This document shows positions 24,014-26,420 of a stretch of 64,000 bases of DNA, in pieces. Origin of the DNA: Escherichia coli (GTDB lineage Bacteria > Pseudomonadota > Gammaproteobacteria > Enterobacterales > Enterobacteriaceae); assembly GCF_003334305.1 (NCBI RefSeq), contig NZ_QOWS01000026.1. The stretch is one strand, 5' to 3'. The position numbers and the translations under genes are program-made. Each line of letters begins with the position of its first letter. Position 1 is the first letter of the stretch. The notes beneath the pieces are model-generated. The model saw only the letters and a program-made list of their open reading frames with translations, made no database searches and was not told the origin of the DNA.

Positions 24014-24109
24014 TACCACCACCTTACATATATTACTCATTAATGTATGTGCGAAAATTACGCCGGAAAATCATTTAAAAAAAGCGGATTTTTGCATGTT
24101 GTTTTGTTT

Positions 24110-24128
24110 TTGCGAGGTGTTTTCCAGA
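24110..24128 (-). promoter_or_regulatory. Recurrent 19-bp motif copy B, upstream of yiiE
   Basis: Plus strand TTGCGAGGTGTTTTCCAGA followed about 15 nt later by GTTGCAGTT, as in copy A. Confidence 0.35.
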
Positions 24129-24617
24129 AATAATAAGAGTGTTGCAGTTGTTTCATTTATTACTCAAAAATGGTTTAGTTATCGCCCAGGATGAGTTATG
24201 GATGCTATGAATATATTATATTCAGGGATGTTTATTTTTTGATTGGATCTTTATTTGCATAATCTGAATGGTGTACCCGAAAAATGTCAGCATCCTAACA
24301 GCACCCGGATTTAAGGTGAAATTAATCATCCATCACAGACCGGTCAGTACTGCCACCAACCGGTCTTTACTTGTTCATCGTTATAATTTTGTTGGTAACA
24401 GTTCGGGAAACAAGGAATTCCTTCCGGAACCCCCCGGTATCATCCGATAGCATTGACGTCAATCATCAGCGCGACGATGAGTTTTTTTAATCGCATCATA
24501 GGGTGGCGACGTTCAGCACGATTACGGGTCATAGCAAAACTCCTGGGCAGGCGACCACTATGCCGCTTTCACAGGAGTTCTGAATGCTAGTGCTTTCTGT
24601 ATGGCATAACCATGCCT

Positions 24618-24908
24618 CTAACGGTTAAGTGCTTGCAGCACATGTTGCGGATCATTGGCAATCGCTCGCAGCAAAGCCTTTGCAGGCCCGGTCGGTGAAC
24701 GTCGCCCCTGCTCCCAGTTACGCAACGTGTCTACGCTTACAGAAATAAGATCGGCAAATTTAGATTGTGACAACCCTGAAGCGCGGCGTATTTCTTTGAT
24801 TTTCATAGCATCAACTTCAAAAGTCCGCGAAGGCTGTCGCGTTCCTTCAATAATTTCATTCATCTGGGCCATGCTGTGAGTCAACCGCTCAAAAAGTGCC
24901 TTATCCAT
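24618..24908 (-). CDS. XRE-family HTH antitoxin-like protein (HigA-type)
   Basis: 96 aa; HTH with hallmark LRNWEQGRRSPTGPAKALLR segment typical of HigA-2-type antidotes; start codon directly abuts stop of upstream toxin gene. Confidence 0.8.
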   Translation of the reverse strand: MDKALFERLTHSMAQMNEIIEGTRQPSRTFEVDAMKIKEIRRASGLSQSKFADLISVSVDTLRNWEQGRRSPTGPAKALLRAIANDPQHVLQALNR

Positions 24909-25220
24909 TTACCACCTCGTATTTAACAACCGGAGCATTGCTTTTTCCTGGGGAGACAGATCATCTTTAATACCCTTACGATAAATAAGCAGTAATCTGA
25001 TCTCATAATGTTTAACCTGATGAAAGTAAATAACCCTGACACCAGCACGTTTCCCCTTTCCTCCTGAAACCCATCGAACCTTTCTTAACCCACCAGTTTC
25101 AGGTATTACCTCACCATAGTCAGGATTCAAGGCCAGGAAAAACTGAAAACGACTGAATTCATCGTCGGTCAGCAGTTTTTGAACATCTTCAGTAAAAATT
25201 TCCGTTTCGATGAAGAGCAT
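24909..25220 (-). CDS. RelE/ParE-superfamily toxin-like protein (HigB-type)
   Basis: 103 aa; conserved GGLRKVRW..GKGKRAGVRVIYF core typical of HigB-2/Gp49-like toxins; located upstream of its HTH partner (toxin-first order). Confidence 0.75.
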   Translation of the reverse strand: MLFIETEIFTEDVQKLLTDDEFSRFQFFLALNPDYGEVIPETGGLRKVRWVSGGKGKRAGVRVIYFHQVKHYEIRLLLIYRKGIKDDLSPQEKAMLRLLNTRW

Positions 25221-25342
25221 AATTATACGCCATTGGCTTAGAGTAACAATCCTTTTTGTACGTCATTGACGTACCCTTGAAACCACTAGCTTACTGATAG
25301 TGCTCCAGCAAAACCACGTCTCTGCCGGGTTTGTCTTTAGAT

Positions 25343-25361
25343 TTGCGAGGCGCTTTCCAGA
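25343..25361 (-). promoter_or_regulatory. Recurrent 19-bp motif copy C, about 125 bp upstream of the HigB-like gene
   Basis: Plus strand TTGCGAGGCGCTTTCCAGA; lies between the divergent toxin and esterase genes. Confidence 0.35.
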
Positions 25362-25373
25362 TTTTTCACGCCC

Positions 25374-26357
25374 GTGAATTTCCCTGTATCCATCCAGCAA
25401 AAACGGGTGTATAAGACTGTACATTCATACAGCAAAATAAGTTCTACTATGGCACTGGAAAAAGGAATTGCAGAGTTAGTCGAAAAGTTTATCGCTGCGG
25501 GTCGCCCCTCATCGCGTCAACAAAGTATTGCGCAGCGCAGGGAGGGCTATATCGCCAGCGCTGTCCTTGCGGGTGAGACAGAAACGCGGGTAGATATTCA
25601 GACTATCGAACTTGAAGGGATGACCTTACGAATAGTGTCGCCGCTGAATGCCCCGACATTACTCCCGACGATAATTTATTACTACGGTGGCTGTTTTGTT
25701 AGCGGCGGGTTCGCAACTCACGACAACCAGCTGCGCCAGTTAGCCTATTACGGGCAATGTCGGGTTATTGCCGTCCAGTATCGGCTGGCACCGGAACATA
25801 CTTTCCCCGCCGCCCATGATGATGCGCAACGAGGTGCAGAAATAGTCTGGCAACACGCCGAACGACTCGGCGTTGATAAACAACGTATAACTCTTGCCGG
25901 TGACAGTGCGGGCGGACATCTGGCGCTGGTAACTGCTTTGCGATTAAAGCGTGCTGGCGAGTGGCAACCGGCACAACTCATCTTAATTTATCCTATGCTT
26001 GATGCGACTGCGCATTTCGAAAGCTACATACGCAATGGTCACGATTACATCATCACACGCGACACTTTACTGAGCGGCTTTGAGATGTATCTGCCAGGCA
26101 TTGAACGCAGGCATCCTGAAGCCAGCCCTCTTTGGCGCGATGATTTCAATGGCTTGCCACCTGTACATATCATTACCGCTGAATACGACCCACTTTGCGA
26201 TGAAGGTGAAGCGTTGTATCACCGCATGACAGGGCAAGGAGTGCAATGCACCTGCCAACGCTACCTTGGCGTTATCCACGGATTTTTTCAGTTAGGTGGT
26301 ATCAGCGAGGCCGCGCGATCGGCACTACGGGATGTTGCCTGGAGAGCGGGAAGGTAA
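25374..26357 (+). CDS. Alpha/beta-hydrolase esterase/lipase (Aes / hormone-sensitive-lipase family)
   Basis: YGGCFVSGG oxyanion-hole region, GDSAGG nucleophile elbow, downstream Asp and His (DPLCDEGE, GVIHGF); ORF track start is GTG at 25374, alternative ATG at 25449 (MALEKG..., 302 aa). Confidence 0.8.
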   Translation: MNFPVSIQQKRVYKTVHSYSKISSTMALEKGIAELVEKFIAAGRPSSRQQSIAQRREGYIASAVLAGETETRVDIQTIELEGMTLRIVSPLNAPTLLPTIIYYYGGCFVSGGFATHDNQLRQLAYYGQCRVIAVQYRLAPEHTFPAAHDDAQRGAEIVWQHAERLGVDKQRITLAGDSAGGHLALVTALRLKRAGEWQPAQLILIYPMLDATAHFESYIRNGHDYIITRDTLLSGFEMYLPGIERRHPEASPLWRDDFNGLPPVHIITAEYDPLCDEGEALYHRMTGQGVQCTCQRYLGVIHGFFQLGGISEAARSALRDVAWRAGR

Positions 26358-26375
26358 CTTCGGACCTGGGCCCTG

Positions 26376-26408
26376 AAAAGGTTTTCAGATTGAAAACCTT
26401 TTCAGTCA
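26376..26408. terminator. Perfect 14-bp inverted repeat between convergent esterase and yiiD
   Basis: CTGAAAAGGTTTTC agatt GAAAACCTTTTCAG; no T-run, so terminator function uncertain. Confidence 0.4.
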
Positions 26409-26420
26409 AGTAAAACGCCC

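Follow-up and report, generated by a model that had tools for sequence, protein, structure and literature searches.

A HigB-2/HigA-2-type toxin-antitoxin pair and a LexA-box-linked family IV esterase between fdhE and fabY: very probably an old enterobacterial locus deleted in about half of Escherichia coli

When a block of genes is present in some strains of Escherichia coli and missing from K-12, was it inserted in the former or deleted from the latter? The question is raised by positions 24014-26420 of a 64,000-nucleotide stretch of E. coli DNA (the whole of which is called the window below). This segment holds a toxin-first HigB-2/HigA-2-type operon on the minus strand and a divergent family IV esterase gene on the plus strand, all with intact open reading frames (ORFs). 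The original prediction regarded it as AT-rich, strain-variable DNA that is lacking in K-12, and as a candidate insertion in the interval from yiiE to yiiD (now fabY). Its composition, variability, and absence from K-12 were all borne out. The windowed GC content is 0.35-0.47 over 23400-25400 versus 0.52-0.57 in the flanks. The alignment with K-12, for which strain RP437 was the reference, stops at window position 24410 and restarts at 26421, so that the toxin-antitoxin pair and the esterase are both missing. In a set of 5,426 complete E. coli genomes, 2,637 contain the pair and 2,640 the esterase (about 49%), and the two are present or absent almost together. The insertion itself did not stand. 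The absence from K-12 was first read in that way, but comparison across genera points to K-12 as the derived, deleted state. The block is very probably an old syntenic locus of Enterobacteriaceae, lying between fdhE and fabY, that was deleted in K-12, in O157:H7, and in about half of E. coli.

The three genes had been described as a RelE/ParE-superfamily toxin, its XRE-HTH partner, and an alpha/beta-hydrolase esterase, and these identities held up in searches of Pfam and of PDB sequences. The ORF positions were also as predicted. The esterase starts at ATG 25449 and not at GTG 25374, where the ORF list begins it; we take the ATG as the real start because RefSeq (PGAP) uses it and cross-genus conservation begins there. 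The toxin gene (24909..25220, minus strand, 103 aa) precedes the antitoxin gene (24618..24908, minus strand, 96 aa) with no gap between them, and we refer to them as higB2 and higA2. The toxin matched HigB-2 sequences of the PDB with phmmer E-values of 1.5e-19 to 1.5e-18. The active-site residues of Vibrio cholerae HigB-2 are R51, R64, Y82, and K84 (PMC5416850). They align with R49, R62, Y80, and K82 of the E. coli toxin; in an alignment of 114 sequences (113 homologs and the query), each of these residues is shared by 113-114. By homology, the toxin is expected to be a RelE-fold, ribosome-dependent mRNase. The antitoxin matched HigA-2 of the PDB (E-value 1.8e-8), Pfam HTH_3 (3e-9), and Pfam MqsA_antitoxin (2.6e-4). 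The phmmer match covered the C-terminal XRE-type HTH, and the N-terminal 30 residues did not align to V. cholerae HigA-2. RefSeq labels the antitoxin 'NadS family protein', and its NCBIfam NadS score is 60.7 bits versus a cutoff of 60; we found no paper that explains the meaning of this label.

Two candidate operators were found in front of the pair. O2 (TAAGCCAATGGCGTA on the gene strand; 25226..25240) ends 5 nt before the higB2 ATG and was recognised by its conservation upstream of higB2 in E. coli, Klebsiella spallanzanii, Enterobacter, Salmonella, and Cronobacter. O1 (25258..25274), read from the sequence as the perfect palindrome GTACGTCATTGACGTAC, includes a -35-like hexamer and is conserved in five genera. 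Two 15-bp palindromes would lie at the predicted promoter. A sigma-70 promoter for higB2 of the form TTGTTA-16-TATAAT (25249-25222) was considered and is unlikely, as its -10 hexamer ends 1 nt before the ATG. Among the genera compared, this TATAAT is confined to E. coli and Enterobacter; the others have a Shine-Dalgarno sequence there. In E. coli, neither higB2 nor the esterase gene has an obvious Shine-Dalgarno sequence at its start. If the pair behaves as its homologs do, HigB-2 would be toxic by cutting mRNA on the ribosome with its RelE-type fold, the N-terminal region of HigA-2 would neutralise it, and the C-terminal HTH would repress the operon by binding to the two conserved palindromes, which overlap the promoter.

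The esterase (25449..26357, plus strand, 302 aa) is a family IV (HSL-type) carboxylesterase with a Pfam Abhydrolase_3 E-value of 5.3e-69, and its best PDB matches are Est8 and other esterases (E-values of about 1e-50). Ser153 of the GDSAG motif, Asp247, and His277 are invariant in 118 aligned sequences. In the HGG(G) oxyanion-hole motif, His is found in 114 of the 118 sequences, but E. coli has Y79-G-G; Tyr79 was present in every E. coli cluster examined, and YGG is confined to E. coli. On the basis of its fold and triad, we would still place the enzyme in family IV. The description of the esterase as 'Aes-like' is right at the level of the family, but the enzyme is not an Aes ortholog, as the score against the NCBIfam acetyl-esterase model NF007547 is 139.9 bits versus a cutoff of 389. 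An assignment to LipP1 likewise falls short (238.8 bits versus a cutoff of 350). Because Tyr replaces the His of HGG and an obvious Shine-Dalgarno sequence is lacking, the activity or expression of the esterase and of higB2 may be reduced in E. coli.

The operon and the esterase gene form two units that diverge across an intergenic region of 228 bp, in which a LexA box was found. The esterase has a -10 hexamer, TATAAG (25410-25415, plus strand), directly followed by the LexA/SOS box GACTGTACATTCATACAGCA (25415-25434, plus strand), and the two make up a feature at 25410..25434 that ends 14 nt before the esterase ATG. The box is the sole CTGT-N8-ACAG in the window and has 5 mismatches in 20 positions to the consensus and 3 in 20 to the K-12 sulA box. 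Its CTG-N10-CAG core is invariant in 19 aligned upstream sequences from many genera and is also found in the Salmonella and Enterobacter loci. In Salmonella 14028s, the divergent genes nlhH and higB-2 have one common SOS box, which lies 13 bp from the start codon of nlhH and 184 bp from that of higB-2, and both genes are induced by DNA damage in a manner that depends on LexA and RecA (PMC8072944). In a dam mutant of Salmonella, the expression of a putative acetyl esterase was also raised about 3-fold, together with that of SOS-regulon genes (PMC4213855). On the basis of geometry and names rather than of sequences, we take nlhH (STM14_4846) and higB-2 (STM14_4847) to be the orthologs of the genes in the window. 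We infer that the E. coli block is also under LexA control. As the operator overlaps the esterase promoter, the esterase would be off in undamaged cells and would be turned on when DNA damage leads to RecA-stimulated cleavage of LexA; the divergent operon may rise too, as higB-2 does in Salmonella.

The surroundings of the block are decayed. On the yiiF side, a PIN/VapC toxin gene is reduced to its ~25 final codons at 23044..23103 (minus strand); in tblastn, the PIN protein of a Salmonella locus (L039) matched them with 56% identity over its residues 100-124 (E-value 5.6e-5). The neighbouring yiiF (23334..23576, minus strand; RefSeq) encodes a ribbon-helix-helix (RHH), VapB-like antitoxin and is 71% identical to the RHH gene that is paired with the PIN gene in that Salmonella locus. 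An intact PIN gene adjoins the yiiF ortholog in Salmonella, Citrobacter, Klebsiella, Superficieibacter, Enterobacter, and Franconibacter, and its matches are to VapC families, all under the curated cutoffs. As only ~25 PIN codons are left in E. coli, yiiF and its paralog yiiE (23795..24013, minus strand; RefSeq), also an RHH gene, are orphan antitoxin-like genes, and yiiF appears to be an orphan antitoxin of the VapB type. Another remnant lies at 24372..24532 (minus strand), where the translations and alignment to two other strains (L004 and L007) revealed the C-terminal part of a 92-aa ORF fused to the N-terminal part of a 73-aa ORF. Both small ORFs are whole in other strains, and here they were joined by a 396-bp deletion (relative to L007) at ~24476/24482. 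The stretch of about 600 bp that had no confident gene in the original prediction consists of such decayed remains of small ORFs.

Is the block, then, a relic without function whose ORFs are intact yet on the way to loss? We consider this unlikely. It would agree with the decay of these neighbours (the PIN remnant, the orphan yiiF and yiiE, and the fused ORFs), with the absence of the block from about half of the genomes, with the change H79Y in the HGG motif, which is specific to the E. coli lineage, and with the weak ribosome-binding sites. However, none of the three ORFs is shortened, the RefSeq records sampled annotate them as intact, the active site of the toxin and the catalytic triad of the esterase are intact, and the LexA box and both candidate operators are preserved.

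A 20-nt motif, TTTGCGAG-N4-TTTCCAGA, heads the yiiF, yiiE, and higB2-higA2 units. A motif scan placed copy 1 (TTTGCGAGGCGTTTTCCAGA) at 23670..23689, 94-113 nt upstream of yiiF; copy 2 at 24109..24128, upstream of yiiE; and copy 3 at 25342..25361, at -107 to -88 from the esterase ATG. These three matches in 64 kb compare with 0.02 expected by chance. Copy 3 is found at the same offset from the esterase in at least 14 of the loci scanned from other genera and is partly kept in Cronobacter, which has no esterase; K-12 has two perfect copies. The unit across copies 1 and 2 (23670 and 24109) is a tandem duplicate that has diverged; its spacing is 439 bp, and a stretch of 100 nt is 71% identical. 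Several explanations of the motif were tried. As a sigma-54 promoter (CTGGAAA-N4-CTCGCA on the gene strand, with GG/GC in the -24/-12 register), it was rejected; with a weight matrix from 50 intergenic ChIP-seq sites, it scored 3-5 bits versus a minimum of 7.9 for real sites, a score equalled by hundreds of positions in the window, and no sigma-54 peak was reported at the K-12 copies (PMC4591121). An integron-like or att recombination site is unsupported, as no recombinase is present; in strain L004, one junction of a yiiF deletion abuts the motif, with short microhomology only. Nor are the copies leftovers of a duplicated esterase leader, since local alignment found nothing outside the motif and the scores were in the range of shuffled sequences. 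As a long shot, the motif might be an operator for a hypothetical regulator that couples the toxin-antitoxin and orphan-antitoxin genes to the SOS-induced esterase. In that case, the genes of the locus would form a single regulated stress unit instead of being neighbours by chance, and the esterase would be an SOS function not found in K-12.

How could the locus have been lost? In E. coli, the pair and the esterase are single-copy, nearly always chromosomal, and 95-100% identical at the nucleotide level; ST131, LF82, O104:H4, and O111:H8 records are among the matches. A sequence of ~105 bp lies across the 3' end of higA2 (24538..24643), and strains that also have an O157-type cargo contain a second copy just after the esterase gene. 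In the case of strain L007, which has the full block and this cargo, the ~105-bp direct repeats (85% identical) surround higA2-higB2-esterase, and the single ~105-bp sequence of O157 is a hybrid of both L007 copies. The O157 form thus appears to be a recombinant between the repeats. The K-12 site is not empty, since part of the O157-type cargo lies there as a truncated pseudogene; the K-12 form appears to be the O157 form after a further internal deletion that left this annotated pseudogene behind. Downstream of the esterase, a repeat search found a perfect 15-bp inverted repeat (26373..26405) between the convergent esterase and fabY genes, which is likely a bidirectional terminator, and alignment of the alleles showed that 61 bp at 26360-26420 are missing from those with the O157-type cargo.

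The other genera give the direction of change. At least eight of them have the esterase with fdhE on one side and fabY on the other (Citrobacter, Klebsiella, Kosakonia, Enterobacter, Lelliottia, Franconibacter, Superficieibacter, and Salmonella). In a data set of one genome per species, a search by exact peptide words, which under-sampled Enterobacter, gave 23 esterase loci. Twenty of these, from Citrobacter, Superficieibacter, Lelliottia, Klebsiella, Kosakonia, Franconibacter, and Enterobacter, have a near-full-length ortholog (70-83% aa identity) right after fdhE where the contig reaches that far, and fabY is downstream in 19 of the 20. In Escherichia whittamii, the esterase is reduced to its last 18 codons. 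In K. spallanzanii, the pair (72% and 85% aa identity) lies at the same site, beside fdhE, and it also adjoins fdhE in Enterobacter, Salmonella, and Cronobacter. It accompanies an intact esterase in Enterobacter and an esterase pseudogene in Salmonella, and stands without an esterase in Cronobacter. The pair is patchy: among the loci of the peptide-word search, with its under-sampling of Enterobacter, it was intact in one and a remnant in another. Citrobacter, most Klebsiella, Kosakonia, and Lelliottia have the esterase without the pair or with an RHH-PIN pair in its stead. We have little doubt that the esterase is ancestral; for the pair, an equally great age is somewhat favoured, and we are less sure of it because the pair is patchier across genera. 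The pair may instead have an old horizontal origin, or its alleles may have been replaced through recombination among enteric bacteria, because it is AT-rich and has homologs with 71-73% identity on Salmonella plasmids.

An island acquired horizontally in the lineage of this strain and inserted between yiiE and yiiD, with K-12 keeping the empty ancestral site, is thus very improbable, and for the esterase this reading is largely refuted. The lack of the block in K-12, the low GC content over the toxin-antitoxin part, and the frequency of this toxin-antitoxin family on plasmids would agree with it. However, the K-12 site holds the cargo pseudogene, the same fdhE/fabY position is occupied in other genera by the esterase and in several also by the pair, and the block occurs once per genome and nearly always on the chromosome. 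Outside E. coli, the identity of the closest proteins is no higher than 76% for the toxin and 83% for the esterase, and because of the former value no recent donor is visible for the pair. No integrase, tRNA, or element end was seen in the segment: none of its ORFs was a recombinase in family searches, and Rfam had no match inside it (its sole matches, at 23207-23289 outside the segment, are REP-derived).

Whether the pair and the hydrolase work together was left open by the original prediction; the common SOS box and the co-induction in Salmonella (PMC8072944) speak for a link, and the separability of the genes across genera speaks against one. That the three genes form one functional system, such as a defence or stress module with a hydrolase that needs the pair, is the least credible reading, for the near-perfect co-occurrence in E. 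coli would also result from tight linkage and block deletion, and the divergent arrangement shared with Enterobacter and K. spallanzanii and the single box have to be set against esterases without the pair or with RHH-PIN, pairs with an esterase pseudogene or none, and a PADLOC search in which neither toxin nor esterase matched any defence system and the antitoxin gave generic HTH matches only. A syntenic locus of separable genes, lost by deletion, remains our preferred reading, and it has consequences for other work. SOS regulon maps based on K-12 cannot contain the genes of this block, which about half of E. coli carry, and studies of DNA-damaging antibiotics in clinical strains should expect two more genes with a predicted link to LexA.

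The block is the E. coli representative of an already known kind of locus, HigB-2/HigA-2 with a family IV esterase and a LexA box, and may be compared with several known systems. V. cholerae HigB-2/HigA-2 (PDB 5JA8, 5JAA, and 5J9I) is also toxin-first; the toxins align over 98 residues and share all four active-site residues, and the antitoxins are similar in length and in their C-terminal XRE-HTH. The identity is ~45-50% (toxin alignment, estimated by eye), and the V. cholerae pair is a superintegron cassette, whereas the E. coli pair is chromosomal, syntenic, and adjoins fdhE. The closest counterpart in arrangement, nlhH/higB-2 of Salmonella, is likewise divergent, beside fdhE, and provided with a common LexA box, at 13 and 184 bp versus ~14 and 194 bp in E. 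coli. The Salmonella toxin is 67-68% and the antitoxin about 87% identical to the E. coli pair. In contrast to E. coli, the esterase is a frameshifted, truncated pseudogene in the pair-bearing loci examined, and other Salmonella strains have RHH-PIN and an intact esterase in place of the pair. The Salmonella pair has also been named sehCD (STM4032.2N-STM4033); the paper on sehAB and sehCD was retracted and is used here for gene order alone, and sehAB was absent from every Salmonella locus examined.

Like the family IV esterases E. coli Aes, Est8, and EST2, the esterase of the locus has the Abhydrolase_3 fold, the GDSAG nucleophile motif, a Ser-Asp-His triad, and ~300 aa; it differs from them in the YGG of its E. 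coli alleles, and from Aes also in its predicted control by LexA, which, to our knowledge, is not known for Aes. In E. coli K-12, the toxin-antitoxin loci dinJ-yafQ, yafNO, tisB/istR, and symER are linked to the SOS response. The present locus resembles them in that a toxin-antitoxin module adjoins a LexA operator. Here, however, it is the esterase promoter next door that the box overlaps, and the toxin gene begins ~190 bp away; distinct palindromic candidate operators lie at the promoter of the pair, and K-12 lacks the locus. Finally, yiiF and its neighbour recall VapBC (RHH antitoxin and PIN toxin): at least six genera have a PIN gene behind their ortholog of yiiF, whereas in E. coli that gene is down to ~25 codons. 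The locus thus exemplifies the turnover of toxin-antitoxin systems at a fixed chromosomal site, which may hold a VapBC-type pair, a HigBA-2-type pair, both, or neither, with orphan antitoxins remaining.

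The interval between yiiE and fabY (the current name of yiiD), positions 24014–26420, coincides exactly with the limits of the insertion proposed in the original prediction. The ORF listing and the RefSeq annotation place it downstream of fdhE (22075–23004, + strand), yiiF (23334–23576, − strand), and yiiE (23795–24013, − strand). It contains higA2, a 96-aa helix-turn-helix (HTH) gene (24618–24908, − strand); higB2 (103 aa; 24909–25220, − strand), which abuts higA2; and, divergent from higB2, an esterase gene (302 aa; 25449–26357, + strand), which is convergent with fabY (from 26421). 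The reported AT-richness was borne out, with a GC fraction of 0.35–0.47 across 23400–25400 versus 0.52–0.57 in the flanks. The stretch of about 600 bp between yiiE and 24618, described as having no confident gene, indeed lacks an intact gene, but two small ORFs are fused there. Alignment with the locus of strain WP2-W18-ESBL-10 revealed that a 396-bp segment of that strain is missing from the window; through its loss, a 73-aa ORF, of which the first ~17 codons remain, is fused to a 92-aa ORF, of which the last ~35 codons remain. Other strains have intact versions of both.

Among 5,426 complete E. coli genomes, the toxin–antitoxin pair was found in 2,637 and the esterase in 2,640, each as a single copy with 95–100% nucleotide identity, and on the chromosome in all but two records. 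K-12 (RP437) aligns to the window up to 24410 and then again from 26421; thus, it lacks the pair and the esterase, as the original prediction stated. In O157:H7, the alignment stops at 24643 and resumes at 26421; between these points are two unrelated genes (L002, the NE92 locus, 3167–4981), encoding proteins of 304 aa and 297 aa that RefSeq labels 'transposase' and 'hypothetical', respectively. Pfam and NCBIfam gave no match for either protein. The 304-aa protein contains the string CKSAKDR (C-x5-R), which we take to be reminiscent of phosphatase active sites.

K-12 keeps a remnant of this O157-type cargo (L001, the K-12 locus, 2850–3326), and in WP2-W18-ESBL-10 this cargo coexists with the two small ORFs, the toxin–antitoxin pair, and the esterase. 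In the latter strain, a ~105-bp sequence spanning the 3' end of higA2 is present twice, in place and just after the esterase, and the copies are 85% identical. The corresponding O157 sequence is a hybrid, resembling copy 1 on the left and copy 2 on the right, the outcome predicted for a recombination event between the repeats that eliminated higA2, higB2, and the esterase. The K-12 form corresponds to the O157 form after one more internal deletion, which left a pseudogene flagged in RefSeq as 'incomplete; missing C-terminus'. The K-12 site is therefore not an empty target but a twice-deleted derivative, and because K-12 lost the locus, the polarity is opposite to that proposed. In some strains, such as UPEC129 (L006, 5345–7102), the ISL3-family element ISEc53, carrying a ClbS/DfsB-family gene, lies between higB2 and the esterase and cuts the latter off from part of the shared intergenic region.

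A search for the esterase in one genome per species returned 23 loci. In 20 of them, an almost complete ortholog with 70–83% amino acid identity closely follows fdhE wherever the contig extends to that gene, and in 19 of the 20, fabY, dtd, and yihY come downstream. These 20 loci belong to Citrobacter, Superficieibacter, Lelliottia, Klebsiella (including K. pneumoniae), Kosakonia, Franconibacter, and Enterobacter. Orthologs also exist in Salmonella, Leclercia, Trabulsiella, and Pseudocitrobacter; in Escherichia whittamii the gene is reduced to its last 18 codons. As orthologs occupy the same site in other genera, the esterase is very probably ancestral between fdhE and fabY. Toxin homologs (67–76% identical) were found in Enterobacter, Cronobacter, Yokenella, Leclercia, Klebsiella spallanzanii, and Salmonella, and in each contig examined the pair adjoins fdhE. 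The esterase beside it is intact and divergent in Enterobacter, frameshifted and truncated in Salmonella, and absent in Cronobacter, where the left neighbors are unrelated; the gene order in K. spallanzanii is that of E. coli. Salmonella enterica has alternative alleles, one with a VapBC-like RHH–PIN antitoxin–toxin gene pair and an intact esterase (L039, 4180–5915), the other with HigBA-2 and the frameshifted, truncated esterase (L031, 5288–6599). The toxin–antitoxin pair is at least old and has been repeatedly lost. Its antiquity at this site is somewhat favored, at a lower rating than that of the esterase on account of the pair's patchy distribution, its AT-richness, and the occurrence of related modules on plasmids. 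The locus is strain-variable, as predicted, but its insertion is not supported.

The assignment to a RelE/ParE-superfamily toxin with an XRE-HTH partner, both ORFs being intact, held. Residues 2–99 of the 103-aa protein match the crystal-structure chains of Vibrio cholerae HigB-2 (E 1.5e-19 to 1.5e-18), and Pfam gave a weak RelE match. Its R49, R62, Y80, and K82 align with R51, R64, Y82, and K84 of VcHigB2, which are important by mutagenesis (PMC5416850); these four residues are conserved in 113–114 of the 114 sequences aligned, which comprise the query and 113 homologs. The antitoxin matches HigA-2 (E 1.8e-8) and Pfam HTH_3; its RefSeq name, 'NadS family', arises because the NCBIfam NadS model was only just cleared (60.7 bits, cutoff 60). 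The esterase, called 'Aes-like', is an alpha/beta-hydrolase of family IV (hormone-sensitive-lipase type; Pfam Abhydrolase_3, 5e-69; PDB esterases, E about 1e-50) with Ser153 in GDSAG, Asp247, and His277 as catalytic residues, but not an Aes ortholog (139.9 bits versus a cutoff of 389). We took ATG at 25449 as its start instead of an upstream GTG, because it is the start annotated in RefSeq and the point from which the sequences of different genera are conserved, and because the longer ORF would take in the promoter elements. At codon 79 (25683–25685), Tyr replaces the His of the HGG oxyanion-hole motif in all E. coli clusters examined; the His is kept in the nearest orthologs from other genera and in 114 of 118 aligned sequences.

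Upstream of higB2, two 15-bp palindromes are kept in five genera, including Cronobacter: O1, with the core TACGTCATTGACGTA (25259–25273) in a 17-bp perfect palindrome (25258–25274), and O2, TAAGCCAATGGCGTA on the gene strand (25226–25240). A −35-like TTGACG (ATGACG in E. coli) lies within O1, and O2 covers the expected start region; these candidate operators have the layout usual for antitoxin autorepression and may bind the antitoxin. A 20-nt motif, TTTGCGAG-N4-TTTCCAGA, has three copies in the window versus 0.02 expected, upstream of yiiF (23670–23689), yiiE (24109–24128), and higB2 (25342–25361); alignment of the copies revealed nothing common beyond the motif. In most genera, the distance between this motif and the esterase start is constant. 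The Salmonella motif is identical, and part of it persists in Cronobacter, a genus lacking the esterase. A sigma-54 promoter was rejected for it on the basis of a weight matrix and published ChIP-seq.

When the 190 nt preceding the esterase gene were aligned across 19 genomes, three conserved blocks emerged: a −10 element (TATAAG/TATAAC), a CTG-N10-CAG directly after it, and, farther upstream, the 20-nt motif. The second block, GACTGTACATTCATACAGCA (25415–25434), is the sole CTGT-N8-ACAG within the 64-kb window. It has five mismatches to the 20-mer LexA consensus, and 3 of its 20 positions differ from the SOS box of sulA, as read from K-12. This predicted LexA box is about 14 bp from the esterase start and about 194 bp from that of higB2. 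In Salmonella 14028s, nalidixic acid raised nlhH (STM14_4846) 15.1-fold and higB-2 (STM14_4847) 8.05-fold; these divergent genes share a single SOS box, at 13 bp from nlhH and 184 bp from higB-2 (PMC8072944). We regard them as orthologs from their geometry and names. As weaker hints, a 'putative acetyl esterase' was up about 3-fold alongside SOS genes in a Salmonella dam mutant (PMC4213855), and the STM4030–STM4031 operon was among those responding to the mutagen MX (PMC2225428); both would agree with SOS control of the esterase. A retracted paper, used here for gene order only, places a higBA-like pair, STM4032.2N–STM4033 ('sehCD'), in the STM403x region, with STM4032 alone between it and another module, and gives 72% as the identity between its toxin and an E. 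coli HigB (PMC3868539); by locus numbering, 'sehCD' would adjoin fdhE.

Within E. coli the pair and the esterase co-occur almost perfectly, which is what adjacency and block deletion would give. Across genera they part company: some loci have the esterase by itself or together with an RHH–PIN pair, and in others the higB2–higA2 pair is accompanied by a defunct esterase or by none; PADLOC gave no defense-system match for the toxin or the esterase. What the pair and the esterase have in common is their predicted regulation. Tyr79, the lack in E. coli of the Shine-Dalgarno sequences that precede the esterase and higB2 in other genera, and the loss of the block in half of the strains leave room for relaxed selection, under which the block would be a decaying relic in E. 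coli.

The gap between fdhE and the esterase is a site of toxin–antitoxin turnover. YiiF is the ortholog, with 71% amino acid identity, of an RHH antitoxin whose gene precedes a PIN gene with VapC-family matches in six genera (Salmonella, Citrobacter, Klebsiella, Superficieibacter, Enterobacter, and Franconibacter). With the PIN gene reduced in E. coli to about 25 codons just after fdhE (23044–23103), yiiF and its paralog yiiE look like orphan antitoxins. REP-type repeats between fdhE and yiiF (23207–23289; Rfam naRNA4 and ES036, below gathering scores) occupy the space of the PIN gene in other genera.

The original observation was confirmed and its interpretation supported in part: K-12 represents a state derived by loss, the opposite of the proposed insertion. 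This is an ordinary strain-variable locus that is already annotated, and its counterparts in Salmonella have been described; as far as sequence comparison can tell, its two components, a HigB-2/HigA-2 pair and a family-IV esterase with a putative SOS box, are E. coli representatives of known kinds.
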